A stretch of DNA of 64,000 bases, from assembly GCA_026770705.1 (NCBI GenBank), contig JANJGN010000009.1, positions 13,392,001 through 13,456,000 on the forward strand. The letters run 5' to 3'. Made by a program: the position numbers and the translations under genes. The notes beneath the pieces are model-generated. The model did not search any database, was not told where the DNA came from, and saw only the letters and a list, made by a program, of their open reading frames with translations. This DNA is from Isurus oxyrinchus. Its lineage: Eukaryota. This document shows, piece after piece, positions 278 to 61,587 of the stretch; the stretch's first letter is position 1; each line of letters opens with the position of its first letter.

Positions 278-383
278 TAAAACACGACCAGTCGATGGCA
301 CCAAGGAAAGCCGTGAAGACTCACCTGTAGCGAATCAGCCATGCCTTGCAGGCTGATTGTAAGTACAGCCCTCCCCATAGTCA

Positions 384-3300
384 TTGAAGTTATGTCCCTC
401 CAGTCTGCCACAATTTGGCCGCATCGAACTGTTTGATCAGACCACCGATGACTGGTCACATTATATCGAACGCCTTGCGTTTTTCTTTTTGGTCAATGAC
501 ACATCAGGGGAGGAGAAGAGGCAGGCAATCCTCTTATCGACATGTGGGAGTAAAACATATGGCCTAATTAGTAGTCTAACAGCACCCAACGCCTCAGATT
601 CCAAGAGCTTTGACGAGTTGGTGAATCTTGTGAAAAACCACTTTCAGCCGAAACCCTCGGTAACAACGCAGCATTTTAAATTCAATTCAGATGCCAAATT
701 AAAGACGTATGCTGGCGAAAACATGAGAGTAAGGGGTATATGTAATGTTCCAATACACTATGGAAATCAGACTGCTAATCTACCCATGATATTGGTAGAA
801 GAGAGGGTCCAACCCTACTTGGTCAGAACTGGCTTAAGGAAATAAAGTTGGAGTGGACTGATATTTTTCAATGCGAAGTGAAAGATCTGTAAGATTTATT
901 ACAGAAATATGCCTCTGTGATCAGGGAAGAGTTCAGGTGGGTTCAGGGGCTGCAAGCTAAAATCCACATGGATCCTGGGGCGACCCCAAGATACTTGAAG
1001 ACGAGGCCAGTCCTCTATGCATTTCAAGAAAAAGTGGATGTTGAATTAGACAAGCTGGAAAGGTTGACTGGATTGGCAGTTGTTTGCTATATAGCAGTCT
1101 TAAAACAACTGACAAGAGGACTATGAGTTTGAGACATCAATTAATGATGTGTTAAGAGATTGATTGGTGTGTGGGATTAACGAAGACACCATTCAAAAAA
1201 GGTTGTTGTCAGAAACAAATTTAGACTTCAGCAAAACGCTGGAGTTGGCGCTCGCAATGGAGAGAAACAATCAAGTGAACACAAAATGGTGCCATCCAGA
1301 TTCTTGAAGTGCACGGTCAGTCCATTATGCATTGTAAGAATAAGTGGATGTTGAATTAGACAGGCTGGAAGGGTTGGGAGTCTTACAACCTGTACAATTT
1401 CCCAAATGGACAGCGCCCATAGTTCCAGTACTAAAGCCTGTCCAGTGTGTGCGAATATGCGGGGACTACAAGTTGACCGTTAACAAAGTGGCCAAACTTG
1501 ACAGCCACCCTGTACTGAAAATTGATGAATTGTCTCCAAGCTGGTAGGGGGAACCACATATATGAAACTCGACATGAGTCATGCTTACCAGCAAGTCGAG
1601 CTAGAAAAGGCCTCTCAGGATTTTAACTATCAATACACATAGGGGATTATACCAGTATACCAGGTTGCCCTTTGGAGTCTCATCAGCTTGTGCCAATGGG
1701 CTATGGAAAATTTACTTCAGAGTCTACCCCATGTGGTGGTTTATCTCGATGATGTCCTAGTAACAGGGCTAATTAATGAAGAACACCTGGCTAACTTGGA
1801 AGAAGTGTGGAAGTATTTTTCACAAGCCGGAGTACACTTGAAAAGTGAAAAGTGTATCTTCCAAGTGAAAGAAGCGGTTTACCTGCGCCATAAGGTTGAC
1901 TCGCCGGGCCTTCACCTGGTAGTAGCCAAGGGGAGAACTATTTGTGAGGTGCTAGCACCGAAAAGCGCCATAGAACTCAAGCCATTCTTGAGAATGGTTA
2001 ACTACTATGGTCATTTTCTCCCAAATTTGTGGACAGGACTGGCTCCGTTATATGGGTTACTCAAGAAAAACCACAGGTCGACTTGGCAAAATCCACAACA
2101 GCAGGCTTTTATGACAGTAAAGCAGTTGCTACATTTGTCGGCCCTGCTGGTACATTTCGACCCAAATAAAGAATTAATTTTAACCTGCAATACATCTGCT
2201 TACAGAGTAGGGGCAGTACTCTCCCACCAGGTGGTGGATGGCTCTGAACGGCCCATTGGCTACATCTCAAGAACACTCAGACTGGCAGGATGAAGAAAAT
2301 CACAAATAGGGAAGGAAGGCTTATCCATTGTACTTGGCGTTAAGAAGTTCCACCAATACATACACGGTTGCCGTTTCACTATCATGCCCAGTCACAAGCC
2401 ACTACTAGGCTTTATTGGGGAAGACAAGGCAATACCCCCAGTTGCCGTGGCACACATCCAAAGGTGGGCACTGATTCTAGCTGCTTTCGAATATACTTAT
2501 ATCCACAGGCTGGGAAGTCAGATTACCAATGTCGACGCACTGAGCCGATTACCTTTAAAAGACAGAGATGTGAATGTCCCAATTCCTCAAGAACTTGTCT
2601 TGTTATTAAACTTTCTGGATTCGTCCCCAGTAAATGCCAAACAAATCAGAGAACGGACAGACCGCAATTTAGTTTTGTCTCACGTCAGGGAGCAAATCTT
2701 GCAGGGCTGGTCTAATGAGACAAAGTCAGACGGAATGAAGCCTTATATTAATAGGGGATACGAGCTCACCTGCCAGGATGGCATCTTGCTGTGGGGAATG
2801 AGAGTCATTGTGCCTCCCAGAGGAAGACAACCATTATTGATAGAATTGCCTAGTGCTCACCCCGGTATTGCCAGAATGAAAATATTGGTGCGCAGCTACT
2901 TATGGTGGCCAGGGATGGACACTGAAATCGAAAACATGATCAGGAGCTGCATGCAGTGCCAACAGGTGCAGAAATTTCCTCCTCCCGCTCCACTGCGTCC
3001 CTGGGAATGGTCAGGAAGGCCATGGGTCCACCTCCACATTGGCTACATGTGGCCTTTTTTGGGCACAACGTTCCTCTTGCTTGTAAGCGCTCACTCCAAG
3101 TGGATGGATGTATACGAGGTGAGATCACACACATCAGCCGCCACCATTGACAGATTGCATCAGAGTTTTGCGATACACGGGTTACCAGAGATAATAGTGT
3201 CTGATAATGGAATGGCATTCACCAGTGGGGAATGTCAGAAATTTACAAGTCTCAATGGCATAACACATGTTAAGACCTCGCTATACCACCCTGCACCCAA

Positions 3301-3440
3301 TGGTATGGGCGAGAGGGCAGTCCAGACCTTCAAGTATGTAATGAAAAACTGAATGGAAACCTTATTGCAACTAGATTATCATGTTTCCTGCTCAGCTATA
3401 GGACTATGCCATGGACGACCACAGGTATTGCCACTCAGAG
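384..3440 (+). pseudogene. Gypsy gag-pol pseudogene (stops, frameshifts, internal rearrangement)
   Basis: ORFs 384-845 (gag N-terminus: DWSHYIERL, LLSTCG), 1344-1547 (RICGDYK), 1688-2293 (YLDD and RNase H start), 2384-3352 (RNase H/integrase). Confidence 0.93.
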
Positions 3441-11239: not shown

Positions 11240-11958
11240 ACATGTCCACTGGAGGCAGCTCCTCTGAGGAGGAAGGGAGATATAGAATAAGGAGGAGGCC
11301 AGAATGTACAATCAGCTTCAAGGGGAGCCAACTTTGGGAGGCCAGGCACAGGCACAAGGGGCACAGGGCCAAGATGTTGTCCAATGTGGAAGGGGCCGTA
11401 GAAGCCACCACTATCCTGCTGCCATGGTATACAGGCGGCAAAGCAGCTACCTCAATATGACTGAGTTGCAGTGTCAAAGGAGGCTCCGACTGTCAAGGGA
11501 GACAGACAACTATATCTGTTAGATGATTGGCCCTGAGATCTCCCCTAACTGTGTGGTTGGACACCCCATTCCAGCGGCTCTGCAGGTCACAGTTGCCCTC
11601 AACTTCTATGCCTCTGGGTCCTTCCAGTGCTCGGTGGGTGATCTTTGCGATGTCTCCCAATCAGCTGTCCACACTTGTGTCAAGCAGGTTACAGATGCTC
11701 TGTTCAACGTGTATTGACCTTCATCCACTTCCGCTGCGACCAGGCAAGCCAAACACAGCGAGCCAGAGGCTTCGCGGCCATTGCTGGCTTCCCCCGTGTC
11801 CAGGGTGCTATAGACTGTACACATGTGGCCATCAAGGCGCCAGCAGGTGAGCCCGGTGCCTTCCTCAACAGGAAGGGCTTCCACTCCATGAATGTGCAGA
11901 TAGTGTGTGACCACAGGATGCTGATTCTACAAGTCTGTGCAAGGTACCCAGGCAGCTC
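11240..11958 (+). pseudogene. Harbinger DDE transposase (HARBI1-like), truncated
   Basis: VTVALNFYASGSFQ, GFPRVQGAIDCTHVAI, NRKGFHSMNVQIVCD, ARYPGS; stop and frameshifts; C-terminal half missing. Confidence 0.92.
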
Positions 11959-13477
11959 TCAGCTCGTTTCCCATCCATCAATGCTGAACAGGGAGATCCA
12001 GGATGACCTCATGTCGGCGGAGCAGCTGCCTGTACTCTGCAGGCACCTCTTAGGACACTCCAGTTGAGGGCAACAGCTGCTCCACCCCTCTCCCAGCGAC
12101 CGCTTCACTGGGTGAGGCTGCGACGACTGAGGAGATGCCAGCTGTGGAACTGGCAAATCCCTTCCAGGCAGGGCCAGCACAGGCTCCATAGGCCAGAGGA
12201 CGACCGCCAAGGTCATCGAGGCCAACAGGACAGCAGGGTCAGCAGGCTGTCTAAGATGCCACTCCGAGCGATGGGGCGGCACCAAGACGTAGCACCCGGA
12301 AACATAAGCATAAGGTACCTTAGGTACACCATGGGATTCTCACTGGTGCTTTTGCGTTGGCTCGAGATTAGGGAATTATTATTTGTTTATGCTTGAAAAC
12401 CGTTTTGTTTGGCAGAGGGATGCGTAACCTGGTGGCATTAATTTAAGGTAAGGGGCATGAGGTTGACAGATGAGATGACGAGGAACTTCTGCACATTGTA
12501 ATGTGGGATGCGCTGCCTGAAAGAGTGGTGGACGCAGAAACCTTCTTAACATGAGGTTGGCACACGCATCTTCGAAGGGCTGAGGGACCTTTGTCTATGT
12601 CCCACAATCCTGACTCTATCAGTCTGTGAACGAACAGTGTTGCAACAGTAACAAATCAAACAATCATCAGTGCTATGGATGGTGGGAAGACAGAGCGGCT
12701 GTCACTGTTGACCTCAAATACCTGGCCGTTCCATCCCAGCCTCACCGACACCTGTGGACCTGGGCGCATGGCGACTCTCAAGCTCCAGGGCCTCCTGCTC
12801 GAAACGGTTTAAAATCATCAGCTGGGCCTGGCCGCTTCCAGTCCACAAACGCTCACAAGCACTGTGAGAATTCTTCTCCTGAAAAACAGAGAAGACCATT
12901 CATTGTGGCTAATCGCACATGGACTCTGCACGCGTACACCACACCCCAACCACAGTGGCCCATTATCAGGCCTCCAGTGTCTCCTCTCAGCGCTACTGCT
13001 GATCAGTCACACAAAGATAATTCGCCTGCTCCCAAACTCCCTCAACAGCCCCTTGGACACATGCTGCATACATCACTTTAGGAACCACACTGTCTTAGCT
13101 CCCATGGAAAAGAGGCGCAACTATGCACAGCATCCGAGGGTCTTGGCCACGAGACCTTGAGGCTCCCCTTCCACAATCTCATTGCCATGAACAGGACCTG
13201 TGTTGGAGTTCTGAGTATGTGCCTAGCTGCATCTCCTGCAGGTTGCCCCCAGACTAGTCATGTATGACCAAGAGCAACACATGGTGTGGGGGAAAACTCA
13301 TCTCCTCATGACCCACTCTGGCTGATATAAGCATGGGCACTATCTGCTTCCCCACCCAGCGTACAAGAAATGCCCAACATGATTCAATGCAGTCACGACA
13401 GTAAGACTTGGGGGAGCCCTCAAAGGCTAAGGCTACCTGCTGGGTTAAATGCCCAGTGCCAACATGGTACTTACCCT

Positions 13478-15188: not shown

Positions 15189-15828
15189 TGCATTTCCTTT
15201 GAGTGTAGTTTTCCCCAAAAGTAATAACCCTTAGGTTTTTGTTCATGATCTTGCTAATTAGTGCGGAATTAGGGACAGGTTTGTGCTGTCAGCTCACCCT
15301 GGGAGGTGGACCGCTATTGCCCAAACCCTTTTCATATAGTAAAAGACAGGAGACTTTCATTTCATCAGTCTGGGTTGGTTTTGAACCTAAATGCCAGCGA
15401 TGAAAGGCCAGTGTCTATTGTCCTATTGCTGGCCATTCCTTAAGGGTGAAACTGAATGGTGGGTGTGTTACAGTTAACTATTAGCAAATTAAATCTGATC
15501 TTACCCTTAACCTCTGTCCAAGACAAGTGAATCTCCAAGCATGGAACCTATCACAAGTAAAACGATGACAAAACAGTTAATTTAAAATAAAACATTTGGT
15601 GACTGACCTCCTTTCATCGCTGGCATTTAGGTTCAAAACCAACCCAGACTGATGAAATGAAAGTCTCCTGTCTTTTACTATATGAAAAGGGTTTGGGCAA
15701 TAGCGGTCCACCTCCCAGGGTGAGCTGACAGCACAAACCTGTGCCTAATTCCGCACTAATTAGCAAGATCATGAACAAAAACCTAAGGGTTATTACTTTT
15801 GGGGAAAACGACACTCAAAGGAAATGCA
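15189..15828. repeat. 219-bp inverted repeat pair (15189-15407 / 15610-15828) with a 202-bp spacer
   Basis: Base-by-base comparison by eye shows 2 mismatches. Confidence 0.95.
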
Positions 15829-21390: not shown

Positions 21391-21749
21391 AAGAGAATAG
21401 ACCTGGCTGGAATACTAGATGGGAGATGCACAAATAAAGCTTTGCACTGCCACAGGGTTTTCTTGTTTAATTGAAAAGCTGGGGTTCTTTTCCCTAAAAA
21501 AATAGAAGCCCGAGGGGTTTTTTGTGACAGAGATCTTTAAAATTTTCAGGGAATTTGATAGCATGGACGTAGAAATGCTTCCACTTGTGGAGCAACCAAA
21601 AACTACAGCCATATATGCCACAGATAGTCACCAATGAATCCAATGGGAAATCCAGGGGAAACCTCTTTTCTCAGAGAGTGGTGAGAAAGTGGAACTCGCT
21701 ACCACAAGGGGTAGCTGAAGTGACTAGCCTAGATGCATTTAAAGGGATA

Positions 21750-21990
21750 ACAAAACAAAAACAGAATTACCTGGAAAAACTCAGCAGGTCTGGCAGCATC
21801 GGCGGAGAAGAAAAGAGTTGACATTTCGAGTCCTCATGACCCTTCGACAGAGTTCTGTCAAAGGGTCATGAGGACTCGAAACATCAACTCTTTTCTTCTC
21901 CGCCAATACTGCCAGACCTGCTGAGTTTTTCCAGGTAATTCTGTTTTTGTTTTGGATTTCCAGCATCTGCAGTTTTTTTGCTTTTATCTC
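21750..21990 (+). mobile_element. Palindromic Penelope-like pLTR insertion (inverted pair plus 36-nt tail), 16-bp TSD
   Basis: Arms 21751-21851 and 21854-21954; TSD TGCATTTAAAGGGATA at 21734-21749 and 21991-22006; homologous to the terminus of the GIY-YIG element at 53198; sits inside a CR1 3' fragment (~21520-22150). Confidence 0.92.
21849..21891 (+). ncRNA. Minimal type-I hammerhead ribozyme-like motif (CpG-decayed copy; a second copy lies on the - strand)
   Basis: Stem I AGAGTT/AACTCT, core CTGTC(A)A, stem II GGGTC/GACTC, GAAAC(A)TC. Confidence 0.7.
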
Positions 21991-22679
21991 TGCATTTAAA
22001 GGGATACTAGGTGGGTGAGGGAGGAAGGAATAAAAGGTTATGCTGATAAAGTGGGTTTAATTCAGGTGGGGAGGAGGCTTGTGTGGAGTTAAAAGTGGCA
22101 TAGGCTCTTTAGACCAAATGTCCTGCTTTTGTGCTGCAAATTCTATGTAATCGAGAGTGCTTTGAACTATCTGTTTATTTTATTTCAGCCCCAAACCATT
22201 TATACCAGAAAGGCATCCTTCTCATGTGTCTCTATGCCAACAACAGAGAATCAGTGAACACTGAGCACACACAATGAAATTTACTATTTCAAGGTGTTGT
22301 TGAGGAAGGTTGCATTATGGTTAGATTGGTTATGAATCTTGACTTGAGTCTCTGTACAGATAAAGCTACACAGCTGAAAAGCCTGATTGATTTATTAAGA
22401 GTAAAGGGCGCAGAGTAAATATTAATCTAGGTTATTGATATTCTGAGAGCATATGTTCCCAAGAGAATGAAAGGGATTATTTCATGTTACAATTTAGCCC
22501 AACAATTACCTCTCTACTTTCTCCCCCTCATGGATCCTCCTAGTAATGATCATCCTAGTAATGGAAACACCAACCAAGTGAACACAAAACCACCAGTGAC
22601 ATTTCATTCAGTACATGGTGCACTGCAGTGATGGACATCTATAAGGTCAGTATTCCTCACTCAGAACCACAAGATGCCC

Positions 22680-30782: not shown

Positions 30783-31369
30783 ACAAAACACAATGGCATA
30801 GATCCTTTGTCCTTCACAAATGTTGCTATCTGCCCTTCTCCAAAAAATCTGCTGTCAAACGCTCAAAGTACCATCTCTATAATGCTGTGAAACATTGTTG
30901 CCTCAAAATTATGACCTCCACCACCTCTTGATAAATGCCTTCTGATTAGGCTTCTGGTCTATCTGCAGCATCAAGTTAACAATGGTCAAACCCATTGACG
31001 TGATTGTAACTGTGGCTCACTCTTCATTCTCCATCTCTTTGTTGCCTTTGATACAGATGAACACTCTTCCAATTTCCCTTCTTAATGATCCATTTCTGTG
31101 GAACTTCACTCTCATAATTCCACTCCAATCTGTCAACGTAGGCATGCCTCCCTCCCCTTCCTCCCCCACCCCTAACTCTAATGGCTTCTCAATCTTCATG
31201 GTCACTTCTGGTGTAGCCAGGGTTCCATCCATGGTCTCCTCTTTTTCATCATTTGCACCCTGGACCTCAGTAATATTATCCAGAAACACAAGGTTAGGGT
31301 TAACATGTATTTGAACAGTACTCAGCTTTACCTTTCCACTGCTTCCTCCTCTGACCCTGTTTAATTAAA

Positions 31370-40332: not shown

Positions 40333-43300
40333 GGAACCACCAGGCTTAACCATGTATGTAGCTGGTGTTTTGTTAATAATTCAGATAGTGTTGAACCTGT
40401 AGTCGAATGTGGAGTTGCACAATAACTAGGAAGAAAGTGGGAAAGTCGAGACTCAAGAGTATCTTCTGATAACCTTTTCATATCAGACTCAAAAGTTTGT
40501 ACAGCTTTCTCAGCTAAACCATTCAATGAGGGATGGTAAGGAGCTGTTTTAATATGTCTGATTTCATTCAGATTCATGAATTCCTAAAACTCTGTGCTGG
40601 TAAAGACTGTACTGTTATCAGAAATGACAATTTCAGATAGGCCATGAATGCTAAAACAGTGACGCAGCTTCTCAATAGTTGTGCTGGATGTTAGCAAATT
40701 TGACTTTGTGTATATCCATCCATTTAGAATGTGCATCCACAATCAGCAAAAACATGGTACCTAAGAATGGTCCTACATAATCAATATCTAGTCTAACTCA
40801 GGGTCAACCAGGCTACTCCCATGGTTGCAGGGGAGCTGAAACAGGCAACTTCTGTTGTTGCTGATAATGGAGACAGTGCTTGACCATGCTGTCAATATCA
40901 CTAAAAATGCCTGGCCACCAGACATAGCTTTGTGCAAGCATTGTCATCTTCGATATGCATGGATGCGCACTGTGAAGCTCTGTCAAGAGTATTTCTCTAC
41001 CTTTTGAAGGGACGACAACTCTTTATCCCTCCAACAAAATTCTTGACAGCTTAACTCTTGTTTCTGGCATGGAATAGTCTCAAATCTTCAGATAAAGGCG
41101 ATTTGACCTTTCTTGATTAACAAAGTCTCTGACTTTTGACAATATTGGATCCCTTTTCGTCCAATTTCTAATTTGCTTCGCACACAGAGGTGAAGAATCC
41201 AAGAAATTCGGTAATAGTGCAACTTCTTGTGGAGGAAGAGCATGTACAATGCTATCTGGTAATAGGAGATGACTGAGTGCATCCATATTTGCAATGTGTA
41301 AGCCAGGATGGTACATAAAAGTATACTCATAGGCAGATAATATCAAAGCCCAACATTGTATTCTTGCTGATGCTATTGGCAGAATCGCCTTATCCTCACT
41401 GAATAAACCCATTAATGGTTTATGGTCTGAGATAACAGTGAAAAGTCATCCATATAGGTACTGGTGGAGTTTCTTCACTCTGAATGCCATTGATAAACAT
41501 TCCTTTTTTTAGCTGGGAATAGCCCTTCTCAGTGGAGAGCATTCTTGAGACATAGCCAATGGGCTTTCCTGATCCATTTTCCATTCTATGTGATAACATG
41601 GCTCCTACACCATAAGGAGAGGCATCACATGTTAATACCAACCCTTTCGATGGGTGGTAGTGTACCAGTAAACATGAAGAATGCAACAGTTTCTTTACTT
41701 TCACAAAGGCTTCTTCCTGTTGTGAGTTCCACAACCAACGTTGATTCTTTTTTAATAACAAGTGTAATGGTACAACACAGTTGATAAGTTAGGCAAGAAG
41801 TGGCTATAGTAGTTGTTCATACCCAGGTTGAGTTCGGTTACATTGGATGGTAAGGGTACATCGTTTATTGTTGAATTTTCTCTTCTACCAGATAAAAACC
41901 CATGGTGTCTACCCTGTGACCCAGGTAAGTAACTTCTGGCACTTGAAATATGCATTTTTCCTTCTTTGACCATACACTGGCTTCCATGGACCTTCTTAAC
42001 ACCGCCTCCAGGTTGGCCAAGTGTTCGGTCTCGATTGACCCTTTGATCAGAACATCTGAGTCCTTGGAAAAGACTCTCCATTGTTCTCTGGAAGATAGCG
42101 CATGCAGATGATACCCCAAAGGGTAGGTGAGTGCACTGATAAAGTCCCTTGTGTGTGTTAATAGTCACATATTCTCTCGATCCAGTTCTAATTGTTGGTA
42201 GGCATGGCTCATATCCAATTTTGTATAGGACTTGCCTCCAGCCAGCTTTGCATATAAGTCGTTTATCCTTGAAATGGGGTACTTGTCTAATTTTACTGCC
42301 TTATTTACAGTGAATTTATAGTCCCCACAAAGACGTATAGCTTGGTCAGTCTTAACGACTGGAATATGGGTGCTGCCCATTCCGAGAACTGGACAGGTTG
42401 AATGATGCCCAGTTTTTCTAATTGGCACAGTTCTGCATCCACCTTCTCCTTCAATTCATAAGGCACAGGTCTGGCCTTAAAGAAAGGTGTTGTCACTTGA
42501 GGATCCACATATATTTTGGCCTGCACACCTTTTAACTTCCCTAATTCATCCCAAAATACCATGTCATATTTCCTTAGCAGTTCAGAAACTTCTCTTTTCA
42601 GGTGTAAATTCTCAGACCAGTCAAGCTTGATCTTCTGCCTGTAAGATTGTGTCCTTCTCCTTTCACTATTATCACAGGTAACTGGGCTGTCTGTTGCCTA
42701 CAAGACACTGGTACTGTGGCGATGCCCTTTACCTGAATATATTCTCCAGTGTATGTCTTTAATTTAGTGGTTGTCTGCTCCAGGTTTATTGGCTGTCTAC
42801 TTTCATTAAGGTATTTGAAAATGTGCTCTCCCACCACTGTGGCTGAGGAGCCCATATCCACCTCCATTATTAGTGTTTTCTCATTAACTTGGATTGTGAC
42901 AGTGATAGGTTTGGTTTTTACAGCAGTGACGTTATACAAGCAATAAATGTCAGTGTCGGTAGCTTCAGGTTCTGCTGGATTTTTAAATTCAATCATGTTG
43001 GTTTGCTGCTTTACGGGCTGTTTTAACTTTGCCCTGCAGTGCCTTACTATGTGACCCTTCTTACTGCAGTAATGGCATTCTGCCTCCTTGAATTTATAGG
43101 TGTCCGGTCCGTGGTCACTTCCACATCTGTAACAGCTTAATTGTGGAGTCGCTGCTGAAATGTTTCTACTAGAACTTTTCATGTTTTGAACAGCGGACAT
43201 TGTCTCTCACTTTGATGCTGTTCTTTGGTTTTTGCACCACTCCTGAGGGAAGGTTCTCGCCTACGTGAAGAACAGCTCCATGTTGTACATGTTGCAAACC

Positions 43301-44097
43301 CTGTGAGTCTCTCACAGCACTTTCCACGGTGAGGGAGATTTCTAGGGTGCGCTTAAAGTCGATGTTGGCGAGCAAATGGTGCTGAATGGCATTATCCTGA
43401 ACTCCACAAACGAATCAGCCCCGCAGTGTATCATTTAACGTGTCCCTGAACTTGCAGTGTTCTGTCAACTGCTTCAGACTCACTACATATGCTGCGAAGG
43501 ACTCTCTCAGAGCCCTAAATTAAATTCAAAACGCTGCATTATTATGGATGGCTTCGGCTGGAAGTGCATTTTCACGAGGTCCACTAATTCATTAAAGAAC
43601 TTAGAATTGGACACGCTCAGGGACATCAGATTATGTTTTACTGCCATTTACACTCAAAGGGATGACTTTCTCCTTTTCCTCTGTGGTATTTTCATTTGCT
43701 ACGAAATAAAATCCGAGGTTCTCTGCATACTGGCTCCAGTCTTCCATAGTTGCATCATAAGGATTGATTTTGCTGAAGAGTGGCGTGACTGGTGAGTAGT
43801 CTTTTCTTCTCCTTAAGATGCAATGTACTCACATTAACAGGGCAGGAGCTATTTTATCCTCATCGCCAAATATAATGACACGACGGAGAGGACAGGTTTC
43901 AACAATAAACCGATAAACTTTATTACAGAGAGCTTTCCAGGTGCTACATGCTCCATCAGGACTCTTGTCAGGAAGCCCCACCTCCCGGATTACCCACGTT
44001 TAGGGCTCATTGATCGGAGCCCCCCCCCCCCCCACCCCCCCGAGCATCATGTGACCCCTGATAGACAGCAGGAGAAACTATATCTTCAGTTACTACA
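40333..44097 (-). mobile_element. Decayed Gypsy (Mag-like) LTR retrotransposon; 3' LTR not found
   Basis: LTR 44097-43871 (TGTAGTAAC...), PBS TGGCGATGAGGAT at 43868-43856; gag with CCHC knuckles, protease EVDMGS, RT, RNase H (LTCDAS), integrase (TAPYHPSLNGLAEKAV). Confidence 0.93.
40335..43785 (-). pseudogene. Gypsy gag-pol pseudogene
   Basis: Many frameshifted ORFs (42598-43200, 42165-42428, 41752-42168, 41420-41761, 41080-41412, 40275-40577); the RT YxDD segment is deleted near 42060. Confidence 0.92.
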
Positions 44098-44185
44098 GTC
44101 ATCATCAATCTCGATAAGTTAATTCTGTTTCTCTCCACAAATACTGCCTGACATGCTGTGTATTTCCAGCATTTTCTGCTTTAAT
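44098..44185 (+). mobile_element. Old Penelope pLTR fragment abutting the Gypsy LTR
   Basis: TTAATTCTGTTTCTCTCCACAAATACTGCCTGACATGCTGTGTATTTCCAGCATTTTCTG resembles 21885-21975. Confidence 0.6.
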
Positions 44186-51898: not shown

Positions 51899-53259
51899 GA
51901 GGGAAAAAATAGAGTACGAGAGAAAGCTACTAGAAATATAAAAGCAGATAGTAAGAGTTTCTATAGATATTTAAATAGAAAAAAAGTTAACAAAGTGAGC
52001 ATTGGTCATATAGAAAGTGACCCTGGGAATTAACAATGGAAAATAAGGAGATGGCCGATGAATTGAACAGGTATTTTGCATCGGTCTTCAGTATAGAGAA
52101 TCCAAGTAACATCCCAGAAATAGCTGTAAATCAGGAATTGGAAGGGAGGGAAGAACTCAGGAAAATTGCACTCACCTGGGAAGTGGTACTTAGCAAATTG
52201 TCAGAGACCTGGGGATTGACAAGTCCTTGGGTCCTGATAGATGTCATCCTTTGCTCTTAAAATAAGTGGCTAGTGAGATAGTTGGTTTTAATTTTCCAAA
52301 ATTCCCTAGATTTGAGGAAAGTTCCATTAGATTGGAAAATGGCAAATGTAATCCTTTATTCAAAAAAGGAGGGAGAGAGAAAGCGAGAAACTACAGGCTA
52401 GTTAGCTTAACATCTGTCGTAGGGAAAATATTATAAGTTATTAATAAAAATGTTATGGCTGAGCACTTGGAAAAATTCAAGGCAATCAGGCAGAGTCAAC
52501 TTGGTTTTGTGAGAGGGAAATTATGTTTAACCAATTCATTGGAGTTCTTTGAAGAAGTCACATGTGCTGTGGTTAAAGGGGATATACTGTACTTAGATTT
52601 CCAGAAGGCATTTGATAATGTGCCGCATCAAAATTTATTGCAGAAAATAAAAGCTCCTGGTGTAGGGGGTAACATATTGGCATGGATAGAGGATTGGCTG
52701 GCTAACAGGAAACAGAGAGTTGGCATAAATGGGTCTTTTTCTGGTTGGCAGCATGTAATGAGTAGCATGCCACAGGGATCAGTGCTGGGGCCTCAACCTT
52801 TTACAATTTATATAAATGACTTGGATTATAGGACCAAAGGTATGGTTGCTAAATTTGCTAATGACAAAACGGTAGGTAGGAAAGTAAGTTGTGAAGAGGA
52901 CATACGGATAGTGGGCAAAAATCTGGCAAGTGGATTATCATGTAGGAAAATATGAAATTGTCCACTTAGGGAGGAAGAACAAAAAGATACATATAATCTA
53001 AATAATGAGAGATTGCAGAGCTCTGAGGTGCAGAGGGATTTGGATGCCCGAGTGCATGAATCATAAAAGACTAGTATGCAGGAACAGCAAGTAATTAGGA
53101 AAGCTAATAGAATGTTATTGTTTATTGTGAGGGGAATTGAATACAAAAGTAGGGAGGTTATGCTTCAGTTATTCCGGGCTGGCGTATTGTGTACAGTAAA
53201 GAAAAACAAAAATACCTGGAAAAACTCAGCAGGTCTGGCAGCATCTGTGGAAGGGAGCA

Positions 53260-53300
53260 CAGTTAACATTTCAAGGCCGCATGACTCTTCAACAGAACTA
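53260..53300 (-). ncRNA. Degenerate hammerhead motif in the PLE pLTR
   Basis: AGTT-CTGTTGA-A-GAGTC..GCCTT-GAAATGTT-AACT. Confidence 0.55.
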
Positions 53301-53708
53301 AGGAAAAATATAAAAGGGGTGAAATATAAGCTGGTTTAAGGGCGGGAGGGAGGGGGGGGGTCGGTGGTGTTGGGACAAGAGAGCTGGATAGAGGGTCAGT
53401 GATAGGTGGAGATAACCAAAAGATGTCACAGACAAAAGGACAAAGAGGTGTTGAAGGTGGTGATATTATCTAAAGGAATGTTCTAATTAAGGGTAGAAAG
53501 CAGGACAAGCAAGGTACAGATAGCCCTAGTGGGGTTGGGGTGGGGTGAAGGAATCGAAAAAGGCTAAAAGGTAGAGATAAAACAATGAATGGAAATACAT
53601 TTAAAAATAATGGAAATAGGTGGGAAAAGAAAAATCTATATAAATTATTGGAAAAAACAAAAAGAACGGGGAAAAATCAGAAAGGGGGTGGGGATGGATG
53701 ACAGAGTT

Positions 53709-54000
53709 CATGATCTAAAATTGTTGAACTCAATATTCAGTCCAGAAGGCTGTAAAGTGCCTAGTCGGAAGATGAGGTGCTGTTCCTCCAGTTTGCGTTG
53801 AGCTTCACTCGAACAATGCAGCAAGCCAAGGATGGATATGTGGGCATGAGAGCAGGGTGGAGTGTTGAAATGGCAAGCGACAGGAGGTCTGGGTAATGCT
53901 TGTGGACAGAATGAAGGTGTTCTGCAAAGCGGTCACCCAGTCTGCGTTTGGTCTCTCCAATGTAGAGGAAACTGCATTGGGAGCAACGAATGAAGTAGAC
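53709..54000 (-). pseudogene. PLE GIY-YIG endonuclease fragment
   Basis: VY.I / YIG / R / E / N motifs plus CxxC..H..H; one frameshift near 53885. Confidence 0.9.
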
Positions 54001-54186
54001 TATAGAATGCAGTAGAATGCAGTAGTATTGTGTACAGTGTTGGCTCCTTATTTAAGGAAAGATGTAAATTTATTAGAAGCAGTTCAGAGAAGCTTTACTA
54101 GACTAATACCAAGAGTATAAGACAGGTTGTCTTAGGAGGAAAGTTTGGACAGGCTGGGCTAGTATCACTGGGGTTTAGAAGAGTGG

Positions 54187-60007: not shown

Positions 60008-60389
60008 CAGCGAGTTTTTTGTCAGAGCACCCTAACAGATAAAAGGCAAAGATAGTGATGTAGTGATGATGTCACTAGTCTTTAGTAAAACAAGTAGTCC
60101 AGAGGCCCAGACTAATGGTCTGAGGACAGGACTTCAAATCCACCGAGGTAGCTGGTGGAATTTAAATTCAGTTAATAAAAAATCTAGAATTGAAAGCTGG
60201 ACTCAGTACTGCTGACTATGAACTATCACCAATTGTTGTAAAAACCCATCTGGTTCACTAATGCCCTTTAGGGAAGGAAATCTGCCATCTTTACCTAGTC
60301 TGGACTATATGTGACTCACAGAAATGTGGTTGACTCTTAACTGCTCTCTGAAATGGCCTAGAAAGCCACTCAGTTCAAGGGAAGTTAGG

Positions 60390-60621
60390 TGAAAACAAAG
60401 AAAACTGCGGATGCTGGAAATCCAAAACAAAAACAGAATTAGCTGGAAAAACTCAGCAGGTCTGGCAGCATCGGCGGAGAAGAAAAGAGTTGACGTTTCG
60501 AGTCCTCATGACCCTTCGACAGAACGAACGGGTCATGAGGACTCGAAACGTCAACTCTTTTCTTCTCCGCCGATGCTGCCAGACCTGCTGAGTTTTTCCA
60601 GGTAATTCTGTTTTTGTTTTG
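60390..60621 (-). mobile_element. Palindromic Penelope-like pLTR insertion (inverted pair plus ~33-nt tail), 14-bp TSD
   Basis: TSD CAAGGGAAGTTAGG at 60376-60389 and 60622-60635; near-identical to 21750-21990 in the opposite orientation. Confidence 0.93.
60486..60525 (-). ncRNA. Minimal hammerhead ribozyme-like motif (best preserved core)
   Basis: GTT-CTGTCGA-A-GGGTC-ATGAG-GACTC-GAAACGTC-AACTCT, with palindromic ACGT in stem III. Confidence 0.72.
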
Positions 60622-61587
60622 CAAGGGAAGTTAGGGATGACCAACAAATGCTAGCCTTGCTGATGATGACCACATCCCATGAAAGAAAAAAAAAACCTCA
60701 CAATTGACTCCATATCGGTATCCACAGGCATATGGGGGAGTGTGTTCTAGGTTTTTACTACCCTTTGTGTGAAAAGGGTTTGGGTTAAAATCCTGGAACA
60801 GATTAGTTCTTTGCTGTTTGTGGGACCTTGCTATGTGCAAGTTGGCTGCTGTGTGTCTTATATTAAAGCAGTGACTATACTTCAAAAGTACTTCATTGGT
60901 TGTAGTGTGTTTTGTGGAAGGCTGAGGTTGTGAAAGGTGCTATATAAATACAATACAGTCTTTTTTTCCCTATATCTTTTCCTAACTCCCATATAATTTT
61001 TCTGATAATTGATCTCTCAAACAGTGGTCACTCAAAGTCACTATTTCAGCATCCATTGACTTTTGGGGGAGTGGGTTCTAGATTTTTACTAGCCTTTATG
61101 TGAATAAGTGCTTCTTGCTTTCACTCCGAAATGGCCTTGCTTAGTCATCAGCCCTATCTTTTCTCTTTACAGCCGTTGATACATCTCTGGATTTCCAGAA
61201 TTTTCTCCACACATTGGATTTCTGGCAATTATATTTTATCCTTTGAATCCTTGTGCATGGTTATATTGTTTTGGTTAACCCATATAGGATGCATATTATG
61301 AAACAAAAAGGAACATCAATTACCTACAAATATGCACTGCTCATGAAGGGTGCCCTGTTTCTGGTGTTGCCAAGTAATTTTAAGCTGTAATTTTAAACCT
61401 ACTTTTCCATCACATGGACGTGCAGGATTGGAGCAGCTAATTAACAAGTGCCAGCATGCGATGTTAATTATTACAATCTTGCTACCAATATAACAAAAGT
61501 ATATTGGTGAACCACATACCAAATTGAGGCCAAAATGTGGTGGTATTCAGATGGAAAAGAAAGAAAAAGACTAAGAAGTAGTTCTGA

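Follow-up and report, generated by a model that had tools for sequence, protein, structure and literature searches.

Within a 64,000-nt stretch of the Isurus oxyrinchus genome (hereafter the window), a palindrome at 60376..60635 and a sister at 21734..22006 are built alike, and the question they raise is whether such palindromes are made anew at each insertion or are copied from a palindromic master. The 60-kb palindrome was confirmed to exist as described in a first-pass annotation of this DNA. The parts of the two copies, as delimited by exact repeats, comparison of the arms and matches to other copies in the window, are as follows (published work is cited here and below from excerpts of the papers concerned).

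60050..60691, plus strand: host SINE-like repeat, interrupted by the 60-kb insertion (matches to window copies; A/B-box-like motifs)
60376..60389, no strand: left copy of the 14-bp TSD, within the SINE 3′ region (exact repeat; the site is single in the other SINE copies of the window)
60390..60422, minus strand: PLE 'tail', a 33-nt 3′ extension on one arm only (homologous to the 36-nt tail of the sister)
60423..60525, minus strand: long arm, 103 nt, a pseudo-LTR end with its element sense on the minus strand (1 substitution against the four-arm majority)
60526..60529, no strand: central junction, 4 nt (arm comparison)
60530..60621, plus strand: short arm, 92 nt, an inverted pseudo-LTR end without the tail and without the CUG core box (arm comparison)
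60622..60635, no strand: right copy of the 14-bp TSD (exact repeat)
21734..22006, plus strand: sister palindrome, with a 16-bp TSD at 21734-21749 and 21991-22006
21750, 21751-21851, 21852-21954 and 21955-21990: extra A, short arm, long arm and tail of the sister, respectively (arm comparison)

The paired arms of the 60-kb palindrome (60423-60514 and 60530-60621; 92 nt) are 99% complementary, with 1 mismatch, and the exact 14-bp TSD copies start at 60376 and 60622. As DNA, the 232-nt insert folds with a z value of –31, a stability reached in none of 200 shuffles, and the fold of its transcript is a single hairpin of –182 to –184 kcal/mol; a single arm has no special fold stability (z = 0.51). 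When the whole window was scanned for near-perfect hairpin centres (arm of at least 30, loop of at most 25), only two were returned, namely this palindrome and its sister at ∼21850, and the only two exact direct repeats of at least 14 bp spaced 200–300 bp apart were the TSDs of these same palindromes. The 4-nt junction can be parsed in two ways, either as the first 4 nt of the long arm repeated or as a short arm extended by 4 nt with a 1-nt insertion. A 28-nt motif of the arm had, as expected, no exact match in bacterial and archaeal genomes.

The flanks of the 60-kb insertion are 74–82% identical to other SINE-like copies in the window, which are uninterrupted at their 3′ end and contain the 14-mer target site once; the degenerate A/B-box-like motifs at 60056 and 60131, with 3 mismatches each, are weak when taken alone. 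The left flank of the sister resembles CR1-type LINE ORF2 C-terminal fragments found elsewhere in the window by tblastx, and its host LINE was presumably a CR1. The two palindromes thus interrupt different host repeats by window matches (a SINE-like 3′ end and a LINE ORF2 C-terminus), carry different TSDs (14 and 16 bp, both exact) and, judged from the pairing of their inverted repeats, lie in opposite orientation; the proposal that they arose as independent insertions is supported by all three differences.

Comparison of the two copies bore out a part of what had been claimed on their shared ends. The long arms measure 103 nt in both and begin on the same base, so a common centre holds for these arms, but the short arms (101 nt in the sister, 92 nt at 60 kb) stop 9 nt apart on their inner side. 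The outer base of the short arm is the same in both copies, although the sister has one extra A between the TSD and the short-arm end. The tails are homologous but differ in length (36 nt in the sister, 33 nt at 60 kb) and diverge in their distal parts. Both features, which had been singled out in the first-pass annotation, are known from PLEs (PMC8557442, PMC3846280). The junctions do differ as reported, the central spacer being 2 nt in the sister and 4 nt in the 60-kb palindrome. Across their common 92 nt the four arms reduce to one sequence, with 5 substitutions in all, none of them found in more than one arm (3 and 1 in the arms of the sister, 1 and 0 in those at 60 kb); no variant among the four links the two arms of one copy, or the like arms of the two copies. 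Since all 5 are private, they are uninformative as to master copying or de novo formation.

The 60-kb insert has 12 CpGs in its 232 nt, an observed/expected ratio of 0.99 against 0.31 for the window, and has kept 10 of its 10 family CpG sites, compared with 6 of 11 in the sister (Fisher P = 0.035, the polarity of a tail site being assumed). The host repeats are ∼20–25% diverged from their kin. These values support the earlier reading of CpG retention as a sign of recent insertion, and indicate that the 60-kb insertion is much younger than its host repeat and younger than the sister, so that the family was active over a span of time. Conversion between arms could mask age, yet the unpaired tail also retains its CpG.

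Other features of the window were recorded as well. A 219-nt inverted repeat (15189-15407 and 15610-15828; 99% complementary, 202-nt spacer) is unrelated to the Penelope repeat and has no other copy in the window; it may represent a TIR element, or else a local segment recently duplicated in inverted orientation. Of the long stop-to-stop frames, 53 were listed; no host gene was recognised among them, and those that were recognised we take to be repeat-derived: 381-3352 and 41080-43206 presumably hold long frames with the decayed remains of an LTR-retrotransposon-like pol, and a frame at 11642-12067, in a GC-rich stretch, seems to resemble a fragment of a PIF/Harbinger-type transposase. Two long frames that overlap on opposite strands at 30946-31364 do not look repeat-like, and are a possible host exon.

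Relation to a Penelope-like element

A profile search of the window with the repeat returned six stretches, i.e. the four palindrome arms and two further copies:

53184..54038, minus strand: 5′-truncated PLE of a sister subfamily, with a frameshifted GIY-YIG/CCHH endonuclease fragment, a 3′ UTR and a pseudo-LTR end; 14-bp TSD at 53184-53197 and 54025-54038, no tail and no inverted arm
44093..44182, plus strand: older single pseudo-LTR relic, ∼73% identical, with the hammerhead core partly deleted (profile search)

No TSD was found for the 44-kb relic. The 53-kb insertion proper (53198-54024) lies in the ORF of another LINE. Its GIY-YIG domain scored above the Pfam cut-off (PF01541, E = 2e-5), and the C-terminal endonuclease with its CCHH motif is present; the copy is truncated before the RT, so that the RT and the Zn-finger linker between RT and endonuclease are missing. 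Among 17 longer protein relatives, the best came from a skate and was 67% identical to the 55-aa query over 76% of that query, which points to a cartilaginous-fish genome; this skate relative (P0001) carries RVT_1 (E = 6e-19), its GIY-YIG match being below cut-off (E = 0.008). By its look, the endonuclease C-terminus is presumably Neptune-like. The arms of the palindromes are 81–83% identical to the terminal repeat of the 53-kb copy (E = 1e-19 to 1e-23 in-window), and because they match the terminal repeat of a GIY-YIG-bearing insertion, the palindromes are made of pseudo-LTR ends and belong to a PLE subfamily that is the sister of the 53-kb one. No more than 2 nt separate the end of the 53-kb copy from the position of the palindromes' short-arm end, i.e. 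the tail-less site, and this end occurs without an inverted arm; at the 5′ junction of the copy there are two extra copies of a 10-mer taken from its own 5′-proximal sequence.

Inverted arms, tails of 33 and 36 nt and a tail-less single copy together make up a PLE pseudo-LTR anatomy, and the 60-kb palindrome is almost certainly a minimal, ORF-less insertion of an endonuclease-bearing PLE, with two pseudo-LTR 3′ ends placed head to head. TSD lengths in the three related insertions (14, 16 and 14 bp) are variable, as is expected for nick-primed PLE insertion (PMC8557442). Inverted, 5′-truncated pseudo-LTRs with a one-sided tail of 30–40 nt are standard PLE anatomy (PMC8557442, PMC3846280, PMC2377424, PMC8969392); one example combines a 31-bp tail and a 9-bp TSD with palindromes where the inverted copies meet (PMC3846280), and another a 34-bp repeat (PMC2377424). 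Neither the fixed outer end nor the tail is therefore new. The anatomy being already known, the single locus is ordinary.

It is very improbable that the element is a MITE-like DNA transposon, or that the junctions differ because the hairpin tip was misread or misassembled. Sequencing of perfect hairpins is difficult, but the arms bear private substitutions and so are not read-turnaround chimeras. As for a MITE or TIR transposon, symmetric termini and a short TSD of fixed length would be expected, while the ends here are asymmetric, with a tail on one side, the TSDs vary (14/16 bp in the palindromes, 14 bp at 53 kb) and the arm belongs to the terminal repeat of a PLE; this candidate was rejected.

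The motif beside the palindrome centre

The centre had been placed at the edge of a ribozyme, and a candidate was found at the corresponding position:

60489..60525, minus strand: minimal type I hammerhead-like motif (relaxed descriptor), with the predicted cut between 60492 and 60491

The motif comprises a 3-bp helix I, a bulge, a 5-bp helix II, a palindromic ACGU and a U at core position 6. The minimal type I consensus is matched at helix I, the bulged helix II with G10.1-C11.1, the GAAA, the palindromic 15.2-16.2 and the UH. With the descriptor relaxed at core position 6, the only match in the window was that in the 60-kb long arm, and none was found in 100 shuffled windows. The strict core CUGANGA (A6) was not found: a U6 is shared by all three palindrome arms that reach this position and the 53-kb copy; it is therefore characteristic of the family and does not reflect decay of the 60-kb copy. 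At the Rfam gathering score the window gave no match; a relaxed Rfam search returned 8 sub-threshold matches, with microRNA hairpin models on top, which were rejected as reflecting the palindrome only. The claim of a ribozyme edge therefore stands in so far as the centre adjoins the 5′ strand of helix I, and thus the 5′ edge of the hammerhead-like motif, but the motif itself departs from the strict core and has no Rfam match.

The minimal PLE hammerhead consensus matches the motif except for U6 (PMC4209133), and A6 occurs in all 44 rows of the excerpted alignment, from a search that required A (PMC4209133). Hammerhead core mutants are rejected, yet a natural A6C variant cleaves slowly, with low activity (PMC3088659). 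The five pairs of helix II were compared by eye with the 53-kb copy: two are unchanged, two are changed on one side but still pair, one is broken and none is changed on both sides. For the 37-nt motif the hammerhead-like fold has an energy of –4.3 kcal/mol, against –7.3 kcal/mol for the minimum-energy fold, in which helix II is present. On this evidence the motif would at best be a weak, putative hammerhead dependent on a dimer or on protein. No open reading frame starts in helix II of the motif. As a ribozyme the 60-kb product is probably a dead end, since the ∼92-bp hairpin of its transcript would bury the motif.

A palindrome centre lying at the ribozyme cut site was considered and rejected, as the predicted cut is ∼33 nt inside the arms. 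The arms span this site, so the template RNA was uncleaved. In the 53-kb copy, a pyrimidine tract and a TAG lie directly before helix I (53298-53315, minus strand) and resemble a 3′ splice site. The AG concerned ties for the best pyrimidine score among 8 YAG sites, in a region that is 74% pyrimidine. In Penelope of D. virilis an intron ends at the corresponding position, before helix I (PMC4209133); U-rich upstream sequence also belongs to the minimal hammerhead consensus (PMC4209133). Reading the palindrome centre as a splice acceptor is a weak lead, suggested by these sequence features.

Routes to a head-to-head pair

The first-pass annotation took a fixed position with different junction bases to favour repeated de novo fold-back over copying of one master. 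De novo formation remains the preferred reading, but two differing junctions are insufficient grounds for it, and another mechanism fits better than fold-back. With only two junctions, de novo formation is indistinguishable from the copying of a master whose centre was repaired later: junctions would also be expected to differ if there were several masters, if the near-perfect centre of an inserted palindrome was repaired, if a nuclease opened the hairpin transcript of a master, or if the tip was misassembled.

If one or more palindromic masters had been copied, the centre would have been altered afterwards, either when a cruciform broke and the ends were joined or when the hairpin tip of the RNA was opened, and the fixed position of the centre would be inherited, not a property of the ribozyme. 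Revision of palindrome centres occurs in the mouse germ line. That the four arms are one sequence over 92 nt and that both long arms start on the same base agree with copying, and palindromes with short spacers are known to extrude and break (review PMC7999016). This account is nevertheless quite unlikely: it is the younger copy that has the more altered centre, the older one being near-perfect there, the tails differ distally, and a whole hairpin copied from one priming event would not terminate precisely where the short arm does.

De novo formation is preferred, and probably came about by priming on two strands more than by fold-back. In fold-back, one cDNA would run from the tail to the ribozyme edge, fold on itself and copy itself back, the result being trimmed or cleaved so as to stop 33 nt before the point where it began. 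Junction palindromes of rotifer Penelope have been read as self-priming on an antisense template (PMC3846280), and the tail has been ascribed to endonuclease resolution (PMC8557442). A fold-back at the 60-kb junction can indeed be sketched using 1 nt of microhomology and a loop of 6 nt, but this requires an extra inserted base; the 2-nt spacer of the sister leaves no room for a priming hairpin unless the centre was edited later, and the tail-less end is also found without an inverted arm, in the 53-kb copy. We regard fold-back as unlikely. Two-strand priming is preferred over it because the tail-less end of the 53-kb copy fits two RT start sites such as those described for an anole PLE (PMC11167929).

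In two-strand priming, the GIY-YIG endonuclease of the element would nick both target strands 14 nt apart (the 14-nt TSD itself is observed), and each nick would prime cDNA synthesis on uncleaved element RNA. One cDNA would begin at an outer start site, so including the tail, and the other at an inner site 33 nt upstream, without it. Both would stop on reaching the 5′ edge of the hammerhead motif or slightly before it, a point at which the template RNA probably ends or is opened, and the cDNA ends would then be joined with a few slipped or lost bases, giving each insertion its own junction. What the window shows is the pattern: nick-type TSDs, two fixed 3′ ends 33–36 nt apart, a head-to-head geometry and 5′ ends that nearly coincide. 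As the 53-kb copy used the tail-less end without having an inverted arm, that end is probably a start of reverse transcription, which favours priming from both target strands over simple fold-back; two-strand priming would account for both outer ends without extra steps. The extra 10-mers at 53 kb agree with slippage of cDNA ends and resemble the possible 4-nt repeat in the 60-kb palindrome, which is short enough to have arisen by chance.

The anole PLE protein nicks and extends both strands in vitro, uses uncleaved RNA, is predicted to be a dimer and initiates at two internal sites that delimit a tail; head-to-head products are not reported in the excerpted text of that study (PMC11167929). 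Further points stand against two-strand priming. The cDNAs would have to stop at the edge of helix I, and the 53-kb copy reads through this edge; moreover, the material amounts to two palindromes and one single-orientation copy with a TSD, the latter from a different subfamily. Twin priming of L1 is an imperfect analogy, since here both cDNAs copy the same region. Taken as a whole, a minimal PLE insertion made by two-strand priming is the best explanation of the 60-kb palindrome, and a fairly probable one; for the mechanism as such, priming on two strands of uncleaved RNA followed by joining at the centre, we would claim even odds or slightly better.

A wider reading is tentative and on balance doubtful. 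It would have a cartilaginous fish carry a still-active, non-autonomous family of hairpin-only Penelope derivatives, each copy newly made by two-strand priming at the two RT start sites; the cDNAs would end where the RNA has a defined end, at the hammerhead 5′ edge (possibly a 3′ splice site), and U6 would be a natural core variant. If it were true, the junctions would preserve a trace of the way in which inverted repeats of PLEs arise in vivo. How PLEs form their inverted terminal repeats and tails is stated to be unresolved (PMC8557442), and two arms with a junction are the simplest substrate on which two-strand priming and self-priming could be told apart from genome sequence alone. Where transcribed, such inserts would yield long double-stranded RNA, and as DNA fragile hairpins.

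Comparison with known elements

In the literature searched, ORF-less PLE hairpins of cartilaginous fish were nowhere described (Repbase/Dfam entries and subscription papers lay outside its scope), nor was any work found that joins Penelope, a shark genome and an inverted repeat, or that treats Penelope twin priming. Metazoan retrozymes (PMC7229834) are likewise short, non-autonomous and hammerhead-bearing, and possibly mobilised by PLEs; they consist of direct tandem repeats whose type I ribozymes are canonical, whereas the present inserts are an inverted pair with a minimal, non-consensus motif. An assignment to the retrozymes was rejected, direct tandem units of 170–400 nt with a canonical type I hammerhead being absent and an inverted pair present instead.

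The minimal hammerheads of metazoan PLEs (PMC4209133) share with the motif the 3-bp helix I, the bulge after A9, G10.1-C11.1, the GAAA-CGU-C and the U-rich upstream sequence, and pairs of them on opposite strands, 100–700 bp apart, are known (PMC4209133); here position 6 is a U, and the arms abut without such a spacer. Poseidon of Anolis carolinensis (PMC11167929) has a hammerhead in its terminal repeat, is copied from uncleaved RNA, and has a tail bounded by two 3′ ends about 100–135 nt downstream. In contrast to Poseidon, no ORF starts in helix II here and the TSD of the 60-kb insertion is only 50% AT.

In overall build the palindromes resemble the EN+ PLEs Penelope of D. virilis, Pen2a of A. 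vaga and Naiad (PMC8557442, PMC3846280, PMC2377424), with their head-to-head terminal repeats, one-sided tail of 30–40 nt, variable TSD, palindrome at the inverted junction and shorter inverted arm. The 60-kb insert differs from these three in having neither an ORF nor a direct tandem repeat within its total of 232 nt, and both palindromes differ from them in that their centre is fixed near the 5′ edge of the hammerhead-like motif.
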